From Chrysomallon squamiferum (Eukaryota; Animalia; Mollusca), in assembly GCA_012295275.1 (NCBI GenBank), contig CM022676.1:1178001-1242000 (forward strand): 64,000 nucleotides of DNA. The letters run 5' to 3'. The stretch's first letter is position 1. The number at the start of each line of letters is the position of its first letter. Positions 943 through 41,177 of the stretch are shown one piece after another. Position numbers and translations under genes: made by a program. The notes under the pieces were generated by a model. It saw only the letters and a list, made by a program, of their open reading frames with translations, was not told where the DNA came from and did not search any database.

Positions 943-2033
943 TAGAAGAACAAGAAGAACAAGAACAAGAAGAATTTAAATTTGTCTAACCGTCAATAAC
1001 GACGTCAGCAGAATCCTGTAGGTTACCATAGTGACAGGAGTATTTCCCTTCGTCGTCATACGTAATATTATTAATTTTCAGAATAGATATCATAGTGTGT
1101 TTGTTTCCACGTGTCTCTGCGATGTCATATTTCGACGACTTCTTTATAGTCACTTCATTAACCAATTCGTTATAATAGTTAAATGTCCAGAAAACCTGAA
1201 GAAAGGATATATGCAAAATTGATGATGCACACAATTTGTATTCATTTTTCTTACTGTACAGTGTATTACTTACATAGTTTGTAGTGACTGTTGATACTGT
1301 ACAGTATATTACTTGCATAGTTTGTTGTGACTGTTGATACTCTACAGTGTATTACTTACATAGTTTGTAGTGACTGTTGATACTGTACAATATATTACTT
1401 GCATAGTTTGTTGTGACTGTTGATAATGTACAGTGTATTACTTACATAGTTTGTAGTGGCTGTTGATACTGTACAGTATATTACTTGCATAGTTTGTTGT
1501 GACTGTTGATACTGTACAGTATATTACTTACATAGTTTGTAGTGACTGTTGATACTGTACAGTTTATTACTTACACTGTCTGACGTTGAGGTGACTGTTG
1601 ATATTGTACAATATAATACTTACATAGTTTGTAGTGACTGTTGATACTGTACAGTGTATTAATTACATAGTTTGTAGTGACTGTTGATACTGTACAATAT
1701 ATTACTTACATAGTTTGTAGTGACTGTTCATACTGTACAGTATATTACTTACATAGTTTGTAGTGACTGTTGATACTGTACAGTTTATTACTTACACTGT
1801 CTGACGTTGAGGTGACTGTTGATATTGTACAATATATTACTTACATAGTTTGTAGTGACTGTTGATACTGTACAGTATAATACTTACACTGTCTGATGTT
1901 GAGGTGACTGTTGATATTGTACAGCGTACTGTAAGACTGGAATCTACGATTGCTCGTAAATTATCTTCGTCTATGTTTAATTCTTCTGAAGCTGCTGGTC
2001 CAGTCAGCGGAAGAAATACTAAAATTAAAATTG

Positions 2034-12757: not shown

Positions 12758-15241
12758 TGTTATTAAATACTGAAGTTATGTCGCGTGATCTTTCGGTGGG
12801 CGTGGTTATCGAAGCTTGCGTGCTTGGATTGGTCAGTATGAGCTTGTCAGTCATCTTTCTTGTGTTCAACGTCAGACTGAGGGAGACTAGGTGAGTTGTT
12901 ATGTTCATAAGATCACTATAATAATAATAATAATAATAATAATAAAACACTGTTGGTTGATATATGTACTGATTTTTTATTTTTATTTAAAACGCCTTTC
13001 TGTGATAAATTTACAAGCTGCGAATTTATTCTCAAAAACTGTAAATAGCACAATTTAAATTCATGATCTAAACATCCATGTTTTGTTTCCAGAATAATCA
13101 AGATGTCAAGTCCGAATCTAAATGTTATGATAGCTTTTGGCGGGATTTTTGCAAGTATCGGCTGTTTGATGTTTGGAATGGATTACTTCTTGGAGGATGA
13201 TGAATCCAAAATGTCTACTTTGTGTCAGGTAAATTTTTAAATAATGCGGAGAATTTTTCGTATTAAATAATGATAAAAGCAATAGATTATTTTGCAGGCA
13301 ATTAATCTTTGCTAATAATAAAGTATCACAATAAAATAACAAAGGTGTAAGAAAACACAGAAATTAAAATTTACCCATTTTTATGATATTTCAGTGATTA
13401 AATTATGACATTAAAAAGACCCTTCATCTGTATTAACAACGGTAGATTTTAATTGTTATATTTAGTTTTACTTTAATTTAAAATGTTTTAGAAATGAAAT
13501 ATTTTGTTGTTCAGGTTCGAGTTGCTGTGATAGTTCTGTCTACAAGTCTTGTGTTTGGTCCTATGTTTACGAAAGCTTGGCGAGTTCATAAAATATTCCA
13601 GCAAGCTGCCACTAGAAAAGTTGTAAGTTGACTTTTTTTTAAACTTACTCATTTACAACTGTTTATCGGGTTAATATTTATATAATTTGTTTATCGGGTA
13701 TGTCTATATCTATCTATCTATCTATATACATACGTACATACATACATACATTAGTTTCAGATGAATGTAATAGCTAACAAATCAAAAAAGCAAAAACAAA
13801 TTAGGAGCATAATTTTGATGATATCATTTCATTTATGTAAATTAGTTTTTACATTTTATTTCATTTCTGCTTTTTTGTTTATTTAAATGATAGGTTATTA
13901 GAGACAACAAGCTGTTTCTTATAATCAGCGCCATCTTGTTGTGTGACGTCACAGTTATTTGTGTTTGGCAGAGCATTGATCCACTTCAGTGGACAACAAC
14001 AGTTGTGACCAGTCAGGTAAACGTTAATTATTTTTTCTTTAATTAAATTTCTTTTCTCTTCTTCTTTTGTTTTTATTTTTTATTTTTATTTCATTTTATT
14101 TTTTTTAAATTTAATTTTTACTTTATATTTATATTTATATTTCTTCCATATATTGCTATATATGTTACTTACGTATATTTTACAATATACTTTTTCTCCT
14201 AAAACTTCTAACTTTATAATAATTTATACATATAACGATATTTAATATACGCATTAATGACTTTATTGCAGGTCTTCCCTACTCTTTCATCAAATGATTC
14301 GACAAACAACGTCATCACTGTCCACTGGTGTACGTCACAAAACGCTGACGTATGGGTTGCCAGCTTGTTAACCTTCAAAGTAGTCATACTTCTGTATGGT
14401 CTTTATCTAGCATGGCAAGTCAGAAACATCACTCTACCGTCAATGAATGACGCAAATCCCATTATTGTGACGTCACTGACAACCATGATAATGGCAACGT
14501 TTGCGTCATCCGTTACCATGATGCTGAGGGCATGGCCTAATGCAGTCTATGCATGTATTATCTTTGCAGTTTGGTTCAGCAATGTAACATCCATGATGGC
14601 AGTGTTTTTGCCAAAGGTATGAACATTTTATTAATAGTAAATAAATTAAATTAAAATCTAATCAATAAAATTATAATATATATTATTTTCATATAGTAAT
14701 CATTTATTATTAACGCTAATTTATTTATTGTTAATTATTATACCTTTATTATTTTTGATTTTCATACAGTTATAACTCAGAAAATTAAGTCAACACAATC
14801 TACATTGGATATCCTTTCATATTATATACTACGTTCTGAGATATTTTCAGGATACGTCAGTGTAAAAATGAGCTATTTAGAAATCAATAAAATAGCAAAC
14901 TTGTACTCTGTGACATATTTGTGAACATCTGTATGATTACATTTAAATGTAGAAAATGTACGTATTTATGTAATAATTCTAGTTAACTCTGGTTTGACTT
15001 CAGATTCGACTGTGGAAGAAAACGCCAGGCAATCCTCAGTTCAGAGTAAGCACAGCGTCAGGTAACATGACATCTGGGTTGCAGTCGTTTGAGCAAGTGG
15101 AAGAGGAACTGTATCACATGGTCAAGGAAAACATTTCTTTACAGAAGTCGCTTCAAGAGGTAAATATTTAATTTATAAACTAACACCTTCATATCAGTTT
15201 ATAAATAAATAAATAAATAAATATTATTACTGTTGTTGCTA

Positions 15242-15295
<54 letters not shown>

Positions 15296-16060
15296 TTAAA
15301 ACAGAAAAATGAAGATATCCAAGTACTTCAGAAACATCTTGACAGTGCTCAGGAAAAATTAACTCAAATTAAAATAGCACAAGAAGGGAAGCAGGACAGT
15401 GGCCTTGACCTTTCTTCTGTCAGTCATGATGATGGCTGTGAAATCACTGTTCTGCACAAGGACTGTTACAACAGCAGAGAAAGTTATCAAAGTTACATGG
15501 ACATGAATGGAACTGTTACTCAGAGTTGTCACAAATCTAAACGTCCTTCCAGTGCACACAGTATAGTCAGTGCAGCTAGCTTGAGTCAGCTTGCCCAGCT
15601 CAGAGATGCTGTAGTAGATGACATAGCTCAAGCCAACACTTTAAGTTCCAACTTAACCAAGTCATTTTCAAAAGACATTGACAAGGCTAGCAAACGGCGC
15701 TCATGGATTTACGATTCTTTACGATCCAGGCAAGAATTAGCTGGAGCCATAGCAAAATCTTACAACTTGGATGATATAGGGGATACATATTCTTATGTCT
15801 CTAGTTATCTCCCTTCGTCAAGCTCTCTATTCCATAGTCTAGATCCAGCCCATCATCACTATTCATCATCGGAAAGTCTGACATTAGCAAATGACAGTCT
15901 ATATCCTGAGTGTTCTAAACAAAGACAAGTACTAAGGGATCAGAAACGACACAAACATAGACAGAAGGAAGGTAAAAATTCAGAGAAGAAAGTTGAGCCA
16001 CCATATTTAATAGAATGTAATTTGCAAACTGGATGTTTACAGACAGACACATTTGTGTGA
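12758..16060 (+). CDS. GPR156: GPR156-like (GABA-B receptor-related) class C GPCR without a Venus-flytrap domain
   Basis: Phase-consistent exons 12758-12890, 13093-13228, 13515-13622, 13894-14016, 14272-14616, 15004-15159 and 15305-16060. Motifs RIIKMSSPNLN, SLVFGPMFTKAWRVHKIF, VIRDNKL, DPLQW, WCTS, LLYGLYLAWQVRNI-MND, WPNAVY and VFLPK are typical of the GABA-B/GPR156 7TM domain. A coiled coil follows (EEELYHMVKENISLQKSLQEKNEDIQVLQKHLDSAQEKL), then a long Ser-rich tail ending DTFV. In-frame ATG at 12778; the true start may lie in an upstream exon. Confidence 0.85.
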
Positions 16061-26065: not shown

Positions 26066-29000
26066 GAAAATTCATTTATAAATAAAGCATTTTGTTATTA
26101 AAATACTATTTGCTTATTTCTATTAACCAATAAAAAAATTAAATTTACTGAAAGCTAAAAAATCATTTTATCTTTGATGTGTTAATAAGTTTAATAAGTT
26201 TGGAACATTAAAACTTACATTAAATCATTTCTTTTTTTAATAATTGTATTATAATTATATAAAAATGGAACATGTTAAATAAAAAGAAATGTAAATGAAA
26301 TGTAAATTTTCCTTTATAATAAATAATAATAATTCGTAAAATTTAAAAACAATAATAAAAAATCAAAACATTAAAAATTAATAATTAGCTGTTAAAAAAA
26401 AAAAAATATATATATATATATATAAAAAAAACAAAAAAAAAAAAATGTTAATTTCCCATAATATAAATATAATAATTAAATATATTAACTCACTTTCCAT
26501 TTTCTTTTTGCGACGTCGAACAAAGTACAAGATGAGTCCAACATTAAGTGACAGCAGAAAGACACCAACAATACAAACAATAAGGATTATTATTATAGGA
26601 ACATCATCCTTGTCTTTCAGAGAAGATGCTGATATGTCTTCTGGTGGAGCAATGTCTGAAATTACAGAGTAAAAATACTATGATGATGGTAAGTAATGAA
26701 ACTAATGTTTCTCAGTAAACAAACAGACTGAAATTCACACATACGTTGTAAGTAAGAAATCAAACAATAAAGCTTCACTGAAAATATAATAATCTCATAT
26801 TTGTTCTCAAAAAGAAATCAGAATTCACCTTCTTTTATGTAGGAATTATGTAAATTTGATTGACAAATTAAAAAATAATCAAACAGAACAAAAACCAAAT
26901 CAAACAAGAGGAAAAAAGAAAAGAATTAATGTTGCTTTTGTACTAAATTAATATAAATAAATGCAAAAGTTGAAACTGTTATAAATAATTTTAATAATAA
27001 TAAAAGAAAATGTAAATAAAAGATTAAGTAACAACAATTCTTTTAATTGTTAACACTGGAACAAATATATTACAAAATCAGATAATTTTGTTTGTGAATG
27101 TATATATCTGTGTTATGTATGTGTGTGTGTCTGTGCATGTGTGCACACGTTCGTGTGTTGTATTATGTTGTTCTGCTGCATGTAGTGTCTATATGTTTGT
27201 ATGAAGATGTATTCGTATGTATATTTATCATGCTTGTGTGTTTGTGTAAATTTTATCAGGTATGGTATGAATATGTGTGAAAAGGACCATGCAGATTTTC
27301 TACAAAATAATTTTAAACAAGTCTCCTCAAAAGTATTTAAAAATAAATAATAACACAAAATATTATATATTTAACAATAACTTTAGGAAAGAATTAAAAC
27401 TGAAACAAAAAATGAAATGTTCATCTCACCAGTCTCATTAAAATTAAATGGCTTTTCAGCTGTTAAAAATTAAAATAAATGTTCAAGATGTTTTGAAATA
27501 TAAATGTTCAAGATGTTTTGAAATATAAATGTTTCAGTATTAAATTTTTTTTAAAATGTTACTTTTCTCAAAGATGAACAAAAAACAGAATAGAACAGAA
27601 TAGAACAGAATAGAAAAGAACAGAATAGAATAGAATAGAACAGGTCAGGAAGGTAATTACAAAACAAAATAAAAATAAATAATTCTGATTTTTATTTTTA
27701 ATGTTATGTTTCCTGGATGAGAAGGTTAACAGAACAGAAATCTTACTTGATGTCTTTGCCTTTATTATGTTTGGCTGGAAAATGCTTCTCCCTTTCTCAT
27801 TAAATGCTAACACAGTTATTTCATATTCCTGTCCTAGCTTCAGTCCTGCAAAAGTTTTAAACACTGTACGAATGTATTGACATTTATTACTGCTTTCTTC
27901 TGCACTTTTCTTTTGCTGTTACATTATAATGTTTTTTACTTTACAATTTATAAACACTACACATTTTACTTCTTCTTCTTTTTTTTTTTCTTAAATTTGG
28001 TAATGTTAGTTAGAGAAATAGGTATCACAAACCTGGTATAGTGAAAACTGAGGTCCCTGAAGAACTGATATCAATGTAGACAAAACCCCTTGCTCCAACC
28101 TGTCTATAGCGAACCTGAAAACTCTGGACAAGTCCACCATCAAAGCCAGGCTTCCATGATATTGTGATCGAGTTGTGTGTTGCATTAACAAACTGTATGT
28201 CATATGGTGGGTCTGGAGCACCTATAATTTGAAGAAAAAAACAAAGTAAAGATAACTAAAATTAAGTTGATTTTATTTTTACTTTCAATTTTAGTTTATA
28301 TTTAAAATATTTAAAATAAAATTCATTTTTTTAAATTTATTTTCACAGCTTACATTAAAAATATTCATAATAAAGTTGATTCTTTTAGATTTAAAATCAA
28401 AGTAATATTAAAAAACAGAAATAAAACAGGAGACAAAGCAAACTGAACAAGTAATTATAGAAACATTCTCACTTGTGCCATCTAAAACAATCTCAAATCT
28501 ATCAGTGCCCTTCTCATTGATAGCTGTGCACACATACAGGCCATAGTCAGCCTTCATCACATTCTTTATAATCAGCTCGTTGTGATAGTGGACCAGGTCC
28601 TTCTCCTTAGTTTTCACTGTGTACTTGCCAGTGGTCACATCCAGGAGCATCCCATTCTGTAAATATATTAACACATTACTTGTTATAATTACTAATAATC
28701 AGAAAATGTCATGTGCATTTGCATTCCATTCTGAAAACCTAATATTACCTAATATAATTACAAACAATCAGAAAATGCTGGGGGTTTTAAAGTAAGACAA
28801 CTCTTTCAAATTGTTTCCTGACACAAACGTAGTTACATCCCCAGTTATGTAAGATTTGTATACAGCCTAATGTTATCTTAAAACAATTTTGGATGATTTT
28901 ATACATATATATAATTTTATAATATAATGTTATTAAATAATAATCAATATGCTTGATTAATTATTAGACCCATGTCTTGTCAAAGACAGAGAAATTCTAT

Positions 29001-32500: not shown

Positions 32501-34227
32501 CAATTTACACACACTTGTTAAGAGCACTCATAATCTGAAAACATCATTGCTTATGACAGTCCTGAAAAGATGATCTGCCTCTGATACAATGTCTGAACAT
32601 CTATTTATTGAAAATATGATAAAGAAATAATTAATCTTTATCTTGAGCATGAACTAAATATCAGACTAGATATTTCAGTTGAGTTAAGAATGATAACCTA
32701 CCTTTATACCACTTTATAGTGGCAAGAGGGTTTCCTCCTACAGCTAAACAGTTCATTCTCTCAACTTCTCCTGCCTTGATTGGAGCACCCTCTGTGTATC
32801 CAGATATCACAGGTGCCCTTGGAGGATCTAAACAAAATTTCAAATACCATTAATAATAATAGTAATAATAATAATAATAAAATTAAAATTATAAAATAAA
32901 GTGCTTATACTCTATATGTATGTGTGTGTGTTGGGGGATTACATTCTTTAAGTTTTCAATTTACCATATACTCTATATGTATGTATGTGTGTTGGGGGGA
33001 TTACATTCTTTAAGTTTTCAATTTACCATAATCATAGTTAACATACTATAGCTAATTTACAAACTTTCAGGATCATTTACAAAATGGCATATTTATATAA
33101 GTACGTATAATTTTTTTAATTTATTTATTTATTTTTTGATGATTTCCTGTTATCAGCCTTATGTGATTTACTCAAACCTCAGAAGTAAGATTATACAAGT
33201 GTTCATTTTTTATGATATTAAAAATATGAACTGAAAACAATTTCTATTTTATATTTTCATTATTCACAACTGTACATTAAAATTGTTTAATATTCATTTG
33301 TTCATGTGGAAATAGGGTCACTACATAAAGCATGATGTGTTTTTTAAAATTAAAAACATAGATTGAAAACAATTTTAAATTTATATTATCAGTAGTTATA
33401 TTCACAAATGAATAGTAAAATAGGTTTAATGTCTATTGTGGAGCTAAGTGTGAGTTTTAAACTTGGACTGAAATAAAGAACTTACAGAGTACACTCAGAG
33501 TGACAGTGTCAGCCACATTCTGCCCCAGGGCTGTGTTTGTAGCCTGGCAGGTATACACCAGGTTGTGATCCTGATCAGACAGCCTCACTTTCACTGTGGA
33601 CACGGATATAAAACCACCATCAGGCGATGGTGTAACCTTTGTGTTGGCTTCTGGCAACTGCCGCCCTCGGGCAAACCAGGTAATGACAGCTGCAGGGTTG
33701 CTGTTTGAAGACACACATGTAAGTTTGACTGTTTCCCCAGCCTTCTTGGGACTTTCTCCACCTGTTATTGTCACCTTGCTAGGAGGAACTGAAATAAATA
33801 AAAATAAAATAATAAAAATTGTGTGAAAGAAAAATATCTGAAACAAATGGTTTCATGATTTCATTCTTCTGAAGTCCAGCAACAAATTCAACCACTAAAT
33901 AAAAGAACAAAAGAAAAATTAATCTGAAGTTATTTCAAATATTTAGACATATTTACATTTCTGTAAACTGAGTTTTCTTCAATAAATAAAGAGCCAAACA
34001 AATAAATTTATGATAAATTCAGTCAAAATTTGGAATATCTTTATGTAATAATTCCAGAGATCTGATTCTAATTATTTCACCATATGCGAAGATATCAGGT
34101 GATAACATATAATGATGCACAAACTGAAATACAAAGAAATAATTAGCTTAGATTTAAATAGTTCGATAACATTAAACTATTATTCTTTTTTTTTTCCATT
34201 TTCTTTTGGTGTGTGTGTGTTTCTAGT

Positions 34228-34258
<31 letters not shown>

Positions 34259-35128
34259 ATTTTTCTTTCTACAAATAAAAGAAATGCAGTTTAAAAAGAA
34301 CAAACCAATATTGCTTAATTATCTCTTTCTGAAATTCTATTTACAGTAAAAGCCTCAAAATGCTGAAGCAGTTAACATCATTTCTGAATAATGGACTAAC
34401 CATATTTGTTGTGTATGGTTATAAAATATATTGTTTTATCTGTTTTTCTCATAAAACTTTGGTAATAAGTTTTCACTTTACATATGTTCACTGGTAATAT
34501 TTAGCCAATTATATATCATTAAATTAACATAAAGATCATAAATTCTACCTAATCTTATTTTGAAACTGACAATGTATTAAAGTGAACTACTGCTAACACG
34601 AGCAATGATTTAAATATCTCTATACTTCTATTTATTTTGTTTTCTTTTTTCTTTTGTTTTCCATCTAATCTTTATTAATAACAAAATATAACAAGATGAA
34701 TGATGAAGAATAAAATCTTCACAGAAACAAAATAAAAAAATAAAAAAATTAAATAAATCTGTTTGCATATATGCAGTTATGCATGATTCTAATTGTGAAG
34801 GGGTAAAATAGCAACATTCACATATTTTGTAACAGTATATATTTACTGTCATACAATAAAACTACAAAATAATAACTTGGAAATCTAAAAAAAATTTTCT
34901 TACACCATATGTCCATACTGTCACTGTAATGTTATATTAACTGTCAGTTTGGTTAGTGTGGTAATATGATTTGCTAAATACAAAGCTGTATCATTTTCAG
35001 TAAAAGTAAAAACATTTAAATTACAAAACCTCAATGCCATATTTATATCCATTTGTTCTCTTTCTCCTTAAATTTAAAGCTTTATTGTAGAATCAATTAT
35101 ATTTATTTTGAACAAAACATTAAAAAGC

Positions 35129-35159
<31 letters not shown>

Positions 35160-35550
35160 AATATATAAAATAAAATAAAATAAAATAAAATAAAGAATAA
35201 AAGAACTAAAAAAAAAGAAAAAAGCAAAAAAAGCAAAAGGACACTCAAAAACCATTCCCACTATTTAAATGCCCTTTTTCTCAACTATTTTCCCAATACT
35301 ATAAAGCAGTATGGTGTACAATGAAGCCAGTCATTCATAAACTGCATGCAAGCATGTGTATGTCTGATGGAACCCTTTAGAGTTAATCATTATTATCAAA
35401 AGGTATTTGGAATGACCAGCTATTTATTTTCATGATTTAATTCTGTATAAAAGAGTAAATCACTAAAAATAATAGAAATTAGGAAATTCAAATAAATGCT
35501 CAAAACTCAGTTCTTAAAATAATGGCACTTTTTATCGGTTATGTAAAAAC

Positions 35551-35615
<65 letters not shown>

Positions 35616-38089
35616 CAAAAAATAATAACGATCACTGAATAAAAATATGAACAAATAATAAATATCAAAAAAAAATAAAGAAGTAAAGCATTTTTTGATG
35701 AATAAAATGGTGAAACAAAAATTTCTTTCACTTCACAAAAAACTTCTTTCAAGTCCTAAAATGGAGAAATAACTGTTTTCAATGTTCAAAAGTAGAAACA
35801 AGAATGTACAAAACCATCTTGTTTTTATACAGAAAATGTAGTAAAAATTGTAGAAAAAAAAGAATTTAGTTAAAAAACAAAAACAACAAAAACAAAACAA
35901 ACAACAAAACAGGAATGTAAAAAGAATACAAAAATTAAAAATGTTTAATGTACAAAATAAAGAAACGTATATATTTAGCAAGTTTTTAATGTACTAGAAG
36001 TAGTTAACACTAAAATATAAAATAACAAATAATTTAACTCAGCAAAAATAATGTAATTTGGAAATGTAAATAATCTGATTTTGAAAATCTCACCGTAACT
36101 AACATTTTTTGCTACAATAGAATCTAAAATAATAATAAAATGTTATTTAAAACAATAATTAACACTATAAACAAACAAATATTTAAAGTTTAATATTTAT
36201 CTTTACTGGTTTTATATTGTCACTACACTGTGGCTACACCATATTATAAATTTAAAAATATATTAATTTGATTGAAAGAATGATATTAAAAATTAAATTT
36301 TATCTATTACTTTCTTTTTATTATTATAAGTATTTATACAGATATAGATACAGATATAATGAAAATAAAATGCAGATCAAACAAATGAAATAAAAATTTT
36401 TAAATTAAATGAAACCTTTATAGTGAAATAAATTTTAAAATGTTAGCAACTCTTACCAATGGTAATATTTTCTGTAGCTAGAAATTCTATAATGATAATG
36501 ATAATAATGAGATTAATGTTACAATTAAATAAATAATATGAACAAATCAAAAATACTATTATTAATCCATCTAAATACTCTTTTATTTATTATTTTTATT
36601 TTATTTTTTACCTTTTTAAATATGATCAAATTAAATTACTTAAAACTATCACAACCATAAAATATATCACTATAATTAAGTAATGTGATCAACGAAATAA
36701 TTGGAATAAAAAATAAATAAAAAGTGAACACAGTATTTAACATAGTTGTTTTACTATTTATATGATTCTGTCTCTTGGTAATAGTACATTGCTTAAGAAA
36801 TAATAAAATAAAAATAAATAAAAATCAAATAACAAAAAATCAATTGCAGAGTTAAAACTGCTGTGGAAGTCTCCATGGACCACCTGACTGCAGCAGATGA
36901 GAAGTATTCTACACAAATTTCTCTTCACTTTAATAATTTATTGTTTCAGTTACCATGAGTCTGAAGTTATTTATAAGTCACATAAGAAAATTAAAATAAA
37001 ATAAAACATATTTTATTTAAAATATTTAGTTTTTTCTAATTTCAAATAAATAAATAAATAAATAAACCAATCTTTTAATGAAGGAAATTTAAATATTTAA
37101 AGAAACTTTTTCCTTACCAAAAGTGGTATTTTCAGGAAAATATAAACCTAGAATGAAACATTTTATATACTGTACATTTGAAATCATTATCAACCTGAAA
37201 AGTAGCAATATTTAAAGTGACATTTGAAGTCATATATATATTGAACTACTATATATACTAATATATATACTAAAAAAAGTACAAAAAAAACCCTTAAGAT
37301 TATTTTTATAATGAACAATAAACAAAACCACTTTGCCTACAGCTAATTTAGGTAAAAAGAACCACAGTTGTGAGCTGTATTTATAACAACTTTAAAAATG
37401 TTGTGCTGACTCTGCAAATTATAAATTCTTACACTATTCTAAAACAATGATTGCTGTCTTTCTGAGCTGAAGAATTTCCTAATAAAAAATCATTTAAAAG
37501 AAATATTAATTTTAATCAGAAAACATTTCTGTTAAATAACATTTTTTTTTCTCACTTTTTTAAGAGACACACACACACACACTTCTTTTTAATTTATACC
37601 TAATTATTATATATTTGATTAGATATTAAATATGCAAGCCAAATCCATAATTATAAATCTTTTGTCAATAAAGAAACAAAGAAACAAGAAAACAAATGAA
37701 AGGGTCAAAACTAATTTCAAGTTTTAATATGACATTTGAAAATAATTCTTTAAAATACACATACTGAAAAAAACAAAACAACAAAAAACAAAATCAAACT
37801 CAAGTCAAAATACAAAGATAAGAAAAACACAACAAAAAAAAACAGTACTTGATTGGATCATTAGTTTTACACCTCTTTAGCGGATGTTTTTAGACAGTTT
37901 GCAAAAAAAAAAAAAAAAATCATACAAAAAAAAAAATAAATAAAAAATAATTATTAAAACAAAAATATTCCATTTACTAACTACACATACCTTTGATGAC
38001 TGTTAAGGCATAAACCAGAAACAAATATATTTTCTGCACATAAATTTAATAATGACTTCTGTTGTATTTATATAAAAGCAAATTAAAAA

Positions 38090-38121
<32 letters not shown>

Positions 38122-38348
38122 ATTCAGGTGATATTAAAAAGAAAAAAATAACCAAAGTATTTTCAACAGTTCTCACCAACTAAAATTTTTCTGATCTCCT
38201 CTTCTGTCAATTTTATGAATAACCAAGAAAATAAATAAATAAAATATGAAACATTACATTTTAGGTGGCAGGAACATTCTCAGAGAAAAATCTGTACATG
38301 AATATAAACATAACATGAACAAAAGCAACATAAATAAATATTCACTTG

Positions 38349-38380
<32 letters not shown>

Positions 38381-38502
38381 GTGAGAAAATTAATATTTAC
38401 AATTTAATTTAAACATTAACAATTGCATAACAGAGACATTTTATATATTTATTTTAAAAATAATCCAAATTCATCATTAATCATTTATTTTAATGACTGA
38501 TA

Positions 38503-38534
<32 letters not shown>

Positions 38535-41177
38535 ATTGATGATAATAATTAATAATAAAATAAATGGGAAAAAAGGGGAAACAACACAATTCAAAATAAA
38601 TTTAAAAAAATAATAATAAACAAACAAACAAACAAACAAACAAACAAATAAAAAATAAAACAAAGCAAAAACAATAATTCAGAGAAAAGAAAATTAAACA
38701 CAGAAGTGACATTTTATTGATACTTTGGGAATTGCTCTTGAAAAAGAAAATCTTGTTATAGAAAATTTTAACTGATCTAGTCCTGTATTTAAATTTATAA
38801 TGCTGAATTGAATTTTCTTTCATGGAGATATTACTAAGAAATAGATAAATAGGTAGATAGGTATATATTAGATAGACAGACAGAGAAATAGTTAGATAAA
38901 CAGACATATAGACAGATAAATAGAGATAGACAGATAAATGAAGATAGACAGATAGACAGAAAATTAGTAATTATTAAAAACAATTATATTTTTCTTCTAC
39001 AAATCTGGAATAATGATTAAAGTCACAAACATAAAATGGTATTTAAATCATTAATAAAACAAGAAAATGCAAATATAATCAACAATGAAATATAAAATTA
39101 AAAACACAATATTTTTTTTCAACAATTCTTACCATAATCTTCATCATCTACTTCTTCCCTTACTGGTTTCAATTATATGATATAAAATAATTAAATATAT
39201 TCGGTATTTCACATTATGTTAAGCATAATGACTAAATAACAACATCAGATATTCTATCTGACTGTTCATTTTTCTGCAGCTGTTTCTGTTTATATAATAA
39301 GAACTTGTAAAGTAACAGGCTAAAGTAGAGTAAAGAAAGAGTATATTAATGGAAAGAGTACAGTAATTCAGACATAAAACAAAAACAATCTTTCAAATCT
39401 CTTGCTTCAGCCAGTTTTTGAACTTTTCTCTTCCCCCTGCTCTACATTAAGAATTTACAACATCAAAATCTGTAATATCAGTAATACAATAATATTGTAA
39501 TACAGTGTTATTAACTGTTGATGATCCAAACTAATGCCTTGGTACTGGTTACTTTTACTACTTTTGAATTTTTGCTTTTAAGCAATACCAACCTTAGTAG
39601 GAAGAGCTTAATAAACTATAGTTCTAAAATATTAAAATAAACAGATTTACTACCAGATATAACACAACATGCATATGTTTATACACACACATACAGCCAC
39701 ACACATACATCAACACACACACACACACAGTCACACACACAAACACACACACACACACACAAAAAAGAAGAAAAAAGAAAGAATAATAAATTTCTCATTA
39801 TAACAAAACATTTTATTATTTGGATTAGAAGGAAGAAAAGAAACTCAAAACCCTTGAAATATTATCAAATGCATGTTACTGTTATTTACAAATTTTAGAA
39901 ACAAATACCATTCAGTGTGTTTCAGCAGATTCTGTAAAAGTAAATAAAAAACTAAACTTACAGTGTACAGTGAGTTTAATCTGAGTGCTGAGAGGCTTTT
40001 CTGTGATCAGGTTGGAAACCTCACAACGGTAGATGGCATTGTTATCACTGGCATCAACAATAAAGGTGTATTCATTCACAAATTTGTTAGCTCCACTGAA
40101 ATATGAATAGTCCACCTTCTCCTGATTTCTGTACCAAACTACCCTGGGTACTGGGTTGCCTCCTCGTGTGGTACATATCAGACGTATTGTGTCATTTACC
40201 CGAATCACTGTAGAATTGGAATAACCAGTTATCTGTGGAGGGCCAGGAGGTACTGAAAATATATTAAGAAGATATTTTTACACCCACACATTTTGAAATT
40301 AATCCAGATCATTATGAACCTACACATTATATATCTTGCCAGACTGATTAATTATAATAACCACAGCTGAGAACAGCTATGAAAGAGTTAATTAAAATAA
40401 GTAATTAATTAACTGTGTGTGTGTTTGTATGTCATAATGTTCATATCTAGTTAACAGTGATACAGCAATATTAAAAATAATATTTAAATCAACAATATTT
40501 GAATGATCTTTCTATCAATTCCATTTCATGTTAGATTTAAGGAACTTTCTGTTGGTATAAAATAAACAATCATTTCTAGCAGCATAGTATTAAAAAAATT
40601 ATATTATATATATATATGTATATATATTATATGAAATGTATAAATTTATAATTTTTATTCATTTATCATTCATTCATTCACCCTATATCCATTTATTTAT
40701 TTATTTATTTATTTATTAGTTTTAAGTTATTTATTTATTAATTTGTTGCACAACTTACCTAGAATGGTAATATTTACAACAGTGGATAAGACATCTCCTT
40801 GTAAAGCACTGTTAGTTGCATGACATGAATACAAAACGTTGTTCTCCTCATAACTATGTCGCCAGGTAATTGTAATCACACTCTTTGCATTCATCCTTTT
40901 GTCACCAGGAATTTCATCAACTGAATATTTGATATTTTTGGTAACCTTCACTCCATTCCTGTACCATTCTAAAGCAGCAGGCGGCCTACCATTCCTGGCA
41001 ACACATGTCAACTCTACCTTAAACTTAGTGTTAGGTACATTGACACTGGATCCATTACTGTAGCCTTCAATCTCTGGCATGTCAGGAGGAACTGTAATAA
41101 TAATAACAATAATAATAATAATAGGGGTTAATAATAATAATAACAATAATAATAATAGTGTTAATAATAATAATAAC

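Follow-up and report, generated by a model that had tools for sequence, protein, structure and literature searches.

The muscle-specific domain (MSD) of the adhesion molecule NCAM is a membrane-proximal segment located between fibronectin type III repeats, and Walsh et al. reportedly found O-linked glycans on it in 1989. It is encoded by exons 12A-12D (MSD1a-c plus AAG), which appear to be expressed as a single unit according to PMC2120321. Here we describe a block of five microexons (A, B, D, E and F) of similar design in a 64,000-nucleotide (nt) stretch of DNA from the mollusc Chrysomallon squamiferum (assembly GCA_012295275.1, contig CM022676.1, positions 1,178,001 to 1,242,000). This whole stretch is called the window, and positions are counted from its first letter. 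The block lies in a nephrin-like gene, between the exons for two immunoglobulin (Ig) domains, Ig3 and Ig4. Our reading, to which we assign a probability of about 0.7, is that D, E and F are real exons used in series with A and B, and that the 49-residue insert which they encode together is a predicted N-glycosylated, likely flexible and probably optional spacer.

By analogy, the mini-exons of the NCAM MSD are the closest counterpart of this block, in design and not by homology. Both loci have tiny, frame-preserving exons in one intron of an immunoglobulin superfamily (IgSF) adhesion gene, and in both the product is a short glycosylated (here predicted) non-domain segment between folded extracellular modules. 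The single-unit expression described there for NCAM matches the block-wise inclusion that appears to hold here. The two differ in that our insert stands between Ig3 and Ig4 and carries the N-glycosylation sequon N-x-S/T, whereas the NCAM glycans are O-linked. The NCAM exons are not a repeated unit, whereas three exons here repeat one 10-residue design, and there is no sequence relationship. We found no description of this feature in the literature on nephrin microexons, on microexons with N-glycosylation in the IgSF and on mollusc microexons. Judged by the analogy with NCAM, the block belongs to a known kind, the glycosylated mini-exon spacer of an IgSF adhesion receptor, and is not unprecedented.

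Three other systems share some of these properties. The variable exons of CD44 and CD45 are about 100-200 nt long, mainly O-glycosylated and used combinatorially. Like the block, they are cassettes that add glycosylated unstructured extracellular segments and so change the size and charge of a receptor; unlike them, the exons described here are 27-30 nt long, D, E and F have one N-sequon each, and they are apparently used as a block. Mutually exclusive tandem-duplicated exons have reportedly been reviewed for human genes (PMC9741552). Dscam-type arrays resemble our locus in their tandem exons of the same length and phase, here probably produced by duplication, but D, E and F are included together instead of one per transcript and are far shorter than half a domain. 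Neuronal microexons of the SRRM4/eMIC programme are 3-27 nt long, with an enhancer containing UGC shortly before the 3' splice site. They are similar to our exons in that both are very short, frame-preserving, surface-exposed cassettes of adhesion or synaptic-type genes and have strong donors, but four of our five exons have 30 nt, above the 27-nt limit often used. UGC (TGC) was absent within 50 nt upstream of all five acceptors; the nearest copies before A, B and D are 60-67 nt upstream, and E and F have none. Thus, nothing points to an SRRM4-type neuronal microexon programme.

The RNA data came from four runs (X1-X4) of one study which, together with one probable DNA run, cover parts of the window. 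RNA contigs were placed on positions 33300-38500; Ig3 and exon A are outside this region and are therefore visible only as the loose end of a contig. Record 7 of run X2 is a 206-nt RNA contig with a depth of 23 and no mismatches on its placed pieces. It contains, in order, the first 30 nt of Ig4, F (contig positions 31-60), E, D and B, and ends with a 58-nt loose end behind 38204, whose 30 letters shown match, in reverse complement, A and the final Ig3 base. The joints are 36123 to 36457, 36486 to 37118, and 37145(+2) to 38175(+2), and their ends read CT..AC on the plus strand, hence GT..AG on the strand of the gene. The lengths sum to 206 (30+30+30+30+27+30+29) if the unseen remainder is Ig3, and we infer from this sum that the contig ends with a 29-nt tail of Ig3. 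Since this contig carries Ig4-F-E-D-B-A-Ig3, D, E and F are genuine exons, spliced additively and together with A and B. They have what is expected of cassette microexons, namely canonical sites, frame-preserving lengths (30, 27, 30, 30 and 30 nt from A to F), phase 1-1 and presence in spliced RNA. An initial annotation of this DNA, made from the letters alone, had made its proposal for D, E and F depend on transcripts that include them, and one RNA contig contains all three.

Ig4 was covered by RNA contigs of 2.6-3.8 kb in all four runs. In X1, X3 and X4, no contig was placed on A, B, D, E or F, and such missing contig cover cannot be taken as evidence of skipping. Short pieces (about 20 nt) that aligned in X1-X4 (for example record 15 of X4, with a joint from 36407 to 37823 and 3 extra letters) were rejected as low-complexity matches from other transcripts.

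All five microexons have YAG acceptors and G/GTRAG donors, and D, E and F each have a terminal G (Table 1). They are all contained in the 6.2-kb intron that separates the Ig3 and Ig4 exons, and the successive introns of Ig3-A-B-D-E-F-Ig4 are 799, 929, 1029, 631, 333 and 2305 nt long. The initial annotation had described D, E and F as three 30-nt exons of equal phase with a sequon at codons 7-9 followed by a hydrophobic residue. Both features are read directly from the sequence (NTT-F, NIT-I and NVS-Y in phase 1), the 3' halves that it quoted match exactly, and its limits, 36094 and 37147, coincide precisely with where F ends (3') and where D begins (5'). The peptide that it gave for D holds when D follows exon B; joined directly to Ig3, D would begin with Cys instead of Gly because the last base of Ig3 is T. 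The x of N-x-S/T is not Pro in NTT, NIT or NVS, an acidic or basic residue precedes Asn in each case, and the segment has an extracellular Ig domain on either side and precedes the transmembrane (TM) exon. Inclusion of A, B, D, E and F adds 49 codons in frame at the Ig3/Ig4 seam. The last G of F and the TT of Ig4 are predicted to form a split Val codon, which replaces the Phe of the skipped form. A 9-nt phase-1 candidate exon between B and D, called C (37991-37999, minus strand; acag/TCATCAAAG/gtatgt), was rejected. It has a weaker donor (GTATG) and no RNA piece, and the contig joins B straight to D.

Table 1. Microexons of the nephrin-like gene and the Ig exons on either side of them (slashes mark splice sites; listed in the order of transcription)
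Feature	Positions	Strand	Length (nt)	Phase	Splice boundaries and exon sequence	Peptide or domain
Ig3 exon	39962..40252	-		1	end ...CACT/gtaagt	Pfam Ig_3 and C2-set_2
Microexon A	39133..39162	-	30	1-1	ccag/ and /gtaaga	(L)REEVDDEDY; acidic, without sequon
Microexon B	38177..38203	-	27	1-1	gacag/ and /gtgaga	EEEIRKILV
Microexon D	37118..37147	-	30	1-1	ctag, GTTTATATTTTCCTGAAAATACCACTTTTG, gtaagg	GLYFPENTTF; sequon NTT
Microexon E	36457..36486	-	30	1-1	atag, AATTTCTAGCTACAGAAAATATTACCATTG, gtaaga	EFLATENITI; sequon NIT
Microexon F	36094..36123	-	30	1-1	ttag, ATTCTATTGTAGCAAAAAATGTTAGTTACG, gtgaga	DSIVAKNVSY; sequon NVS
Ig4 exon	33486..33788	-			start cag/TTCCTCCT, end CTCT/gtaagt	C2-set_2

The host is a multi-exon gene on the minus strand, from about 48600 to about 24200, in AT-rich animal DNA (GC content of 21-35% per 2 kb across the window). 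Its translations contain C2-set and I-set Ig domains. Pfam matches to PF08205 (C2-set_2) were obtained for Ig4 (E = 9.7e-16), Ig6 (4.7e-10), Ig2 (1.1e-07) and Ig3 (8.8e-07), and other exons have further Ig_3 and I-set matches. A single fibronectin type III (FN3) domain (PF00041 fn3, E = 4.3e-07) is followed by a TM segment and a cytoplasmic tail. From Ig1 to the tail, the exons are collinear with a nephrin-like protein of Gigantopelta aegis (P0012, residues 21-1130 in order), which is the closest orthologue found. The Ig, FN3 and TM exons are 65-93% identical to P0012 (73% for Ig3, residues 241-336, and 93% for Ig4, residues 357-456), and the first tail exon 49%. In the database, the Ig3 exon best matches nephrin-like proteins from Gigantopelta (73%) and Haliotis (64%), and no protein of the same species was among the database matches. 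By this domain architecture, the collinearity and the nephrin-like top matches, the host is classed from its sequence as a nephrin/Sns-family gene of a gastropod-like mollusc. It shares the chain of C2-set Ig domains, one FN3 domain, TM segment and tail with nephrin, Sticks-and-stones, Hibris and SYG-2. Heterophilic binding to a Neph/Kirre/SYG-1 partner would be expected of a member of this family. The long non-Ig linker of nephrin is located between Ig6 and Ig7 according to PMC4074132, and not between Ig3 and Ig4 as is the insert here.

The Gigantopelta aegis RefSeq models (cluster of P0001), which are automatic models only, differ from each other at exactly the Ig3/Ig4 seam. The sequence is KLTVH / SFLSEGNMTF / EFASVNMSF / VPPIKV in isoforms X1, X2 and X4 but KLTVH / F / PPIKV in isoform X3. 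The inserted cassettes have 10 and 9 residues, stand at the same junction as here and both finish with N-x-S/T and Phe, and the change of the split codon from Phe to Val is found between these isoforms as predicted for our gene. The 'TF/EF' seam between the first two sequon cassettes of Gigantopelta is also the seam between D and E. The initial annotation had proposed that orthologous cassettes would retain the sequon, and this is borne out: NTT/NMT and NIT/NMS are kept and most other positions have changed. On this sequence comparison, we infer that D and E already existed before the Gigantopelta lineage split off, so that the duplication, if true, would be old for D and E. Tail variants were also observed in Gigantopelta and Haliotis isoforms (P0010, P0016, P0024 and P0026): the C-termini differ, about 90 residues can be deleted, and four residues (SMYN) after the TM segment are present or absent. 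The gene is thus alternatively spliced at several places.

A wider survey gave no further inserts. Among 138 protostome nephrin-like proteins longer than 700 residues (6 rows incomplete at the seam), only these three Gigantopelta isoforms have an insert at the Ig3/Ig4 seam. None was found in 32 further isoforms or cluster members listed from ten mollusc clusters; for two of these the listing covered 15 of 28 and 15 of 22 members. A search for shorter proteins around the Gigantopelta insert had 43 candidates and gave one match, a fragment that consists of Ig4 only and lacks the junction. Insert-less models do not show absence of the block elsewhere because gene models easily miss microexons. 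A metagenome scan with the Ig4 exon yielded four animal loci, and two of them (L001 with 66% and L002 with 56% identity) have both Ig3-like and Ig4-like exons. Their Ig3-Ig4 introns are only about 620 and 260 nt long and contain no strict-site cassette; these loci are too distant to be informative on the origin of the block.

One alternative is that D, E and F are not exons but open frames that arose by chance in an AT-rich intron and happen to be flanked by splice-like sequence. The Ig3-Ig4 intron does contain 164 loose candidates (AG..GT, phase-1 open frame, 6-60 nt), so splice dinucleotides and an open frame alone prove nothing. With strict sites (YAG, 30 nt, GTRAG, phase 1), however, the whole window has only 6 candidates, both strands counted. 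Four of these 6 are A, D, E and F, and N-x-S/T at codons 7-9 is present in D, E and F only. The probability of three sequons in register by chance is of the order of 1e-6, because the sequon density in nephrin-like proteins is only 0.8-1.3% per residue. Together with the orthologous cassettes in annotated isoforms, these counts argue against chance frames, and the spliced RNA contig refutes them, leaving this explanation with practically no probability. The origin of D, E and F is less clear-cut. The initial annotation had proposed tandem exon duplication. Equal length (30), phase (1-1), terminal G and motif register are in line with this proposal, but DNA identity off the sequon is weak and the flanks are unrelated. 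Ungapped identity among the three exons is 16, 14 and 16 of 30, above the background of random intron 30-mers (10 ± 2.9; P(>=16) = 0.034 per pair), and falls to 10-12 of 25 when the five sequon-fixed bases are removed. The 200-nt intron flanks on each side resemble each other no better than shuffled sequence does (z from -0.8 to 0.2). The low identity and the dissimilar flanks would fit the view that D, E and F are not paralogues but unrelated intronic segments which became exons separately and, with glycosylation under selection, acquired N-x-S/T by convergence. We consider this unlikely, though worth keeping in mind, because the exons share not only length, phase, final G and sequon register but also a hydrophobic residue after the sequon and a charged residue before Asn, and because the Gigantopelta cassettes share F-L/F-A at positions 2-4 with E. 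Judged from sequence, tandem duplication is probably the more economical reading.

How the exons are used was also left open by the initial annotation, which envisaged either a stepwise addition of 0-3 glycans or mutually exclusive use. The latter would mean one exon at a time, as in Dscam-type arrays. Strict mutual exclusion is ruled out by the single contig that has F, E and D in series. Subsets of D, E and F would all stay in frame because length and phase are equal, and minor partial forms could go unseen since contigs drop rare variants. However, the only inclusion form seen here is A+B+D+E+F in one contig that is unbranched from Ig3 to Ig4, which suggests that no partial form was abundant enough in run X2 to split it. 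The Gigantopelta models likewise have both cassettes (3 of 4) or none (1 of 4), and never a single one. Combinatorial use is thus improbable; inclusion looks block-wise in both species, although rare partial forms may exist. It could further be argued that the block is constitutive in Chrysomallon squamiferum and that its apparent alternative use is an artefact of assembly or annotation. A direct joint of Ig3 to Ig4 was not observed in the contigs placed on 33300-38500, and the insert-less models elsewhere could be accounted for by gene models that often miss microexons. Against this stands record 6 of run X2, a 3045-nt contig over Ig4 and the downstream exons that ends exactly at the 5' edge of Ig4 and overlaps record 7 by 30 nt. 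A branch in a k=31 assembly graph leaves such a pattern. Record 7 holds 29 instead of 30 nt of Ig3, as expected if the competing arm also starts with T, because a direct Ig3-Ig4 joint starts with TT. The overlaps of 30 and 29 nt would thus be those of one arm of a bubble. Since the Gigantopelta annotation also has both forms, we give a constitutive block little credence. From the break in the assembly graph and from the orthologue, inclusion of the block is probably optional in this species.

The following mechanism is proposed for the serial, optional spacer. Because the segment is extracellular, each 10-residue unit of the form x-x-x-x-x-x-N-x-S/T-hydrophobic is predicted to gain one N-glycan, which would be added in the endoplasmic reticulum. 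The A/B part (REEVDDEDY / EEEIRKILV) would contribute a strongly acidic stretch, and the Tyr of exon A lies in a context which we take to resemble tyrosine-sulfation sites. With the block included, the Ig3-Ig4 linker would be longer, bulkier, more charged and sterically shielded. Reach, rigidity or packing of the ectodomain would then change in cell-cell contacts or in the slit-diaphragm-type contacts of the nephrin family. An AlphaFold2 model of the Gigantopelta Ig3-insert-Ig4 segment has a mean predicted local distance difference test (pLDDT) score of 87.5 and both Ig domains are confident. Insert residues 101-113 have a pLDDT below 50 and no secondary structure; this modelled coil would fit a flexible linker. 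In gastropods (Biomphalaria), nephrin has been localised to the rhogocyte slit apparatus, and N-glycans are critical for the surface localisation of human nephrin according to work cited there (PMC4074132).

Several points weigh against this reading. The inclusion form was seen in a single contig from one run, all four RNA runs belong to one study, and RNA contigs give no isoform ratios, strand or tissue. The skipped form is represented in this species by the graph break, the direct joint being absent from the contigs placed on 33300-38500, a region that does not reach Ig3. Duplication of D, E and F is not demonstrated at the DNA level. The low pLDDT of the insert may merely reflect a thin alignment, in which, of 40 rows, only those of Gigantopelta (P0012 and the fragment derived from it) contain the insert. 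Finally, the block may be either restricted to a lineage or widely missed by gene models.

Other features of the window were also recorded. The host gene contains a further strict candidate microexon, one of the 6 counted above, at 27430-27459 on the minus strand. It has 30 nt, is compatible with phase 1 (aacag/CTGAAAAGCC...GAGACTG/gtgaga) and encodes EKPFNFNET with the sequon NET at its 3' end. This candidate sits in the intron from the second FN3 exon (end ...AGT A/gtaaga) to the TM exon, and Gigantopelta and Haliotis isoforms have no insert at this seam. Introns are rich in the microsatellites (ATT)n, (ATTT)n, (GT)n and (GA)n, for example at 35550-35610, 38530-38680 and 39690-39760. Downstream of the nephrin-like gene, Ig-like exons at 428-637 and 989-1351 (both minus strand) have weak Ig_3, ig and I-set matches below the Pfam cut-offs and probably belong to a second IgSF gene. 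A neighbouring gene on the plus strand (14236-14619 and 15221-16057) has one exon that corresponds to the C-terminal half of the seven-transmembrane region of a class-C G protein-coupled receptor (PF00003 7tm_3, E = 3.4e-11), followed by a long open exon of no confident family.

A more far-reaching idea, which we regard as doubtful, is that the block serves as a glycan ruler. Each 30-nt exon would add one N-glycan behind an acidic, possibly Tyr-sulfated leader, and inclusion would alter how long, stiff and negatively charged nephrin strands are. If this were true, the ruler would act in the molluscan slit diaphragm (the rhogocyte or podocyte filter) or in other nephrin-dependent contacts, and lineages would adjust it by gain or loss of exon units, with two in Gigantopelta and three plus A and B here.

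Proteins of the nephrin family form size-selective slit diaphragms and also specify cell-cell contacts, two roles for which ectodomain geometry is important. An optional 49-residue insert with three evenly spaced sequons behind an acidic leader would alter the length, bulk and charge of the ectodomain and leave the binding domains untouched. The sequon register is kept in five cassettes of two species in which most other residues have changed, as would be expected of selection on a post-translational motif and not on the peptide. Gene models of molluscan adhesion proteins may miss such exons.

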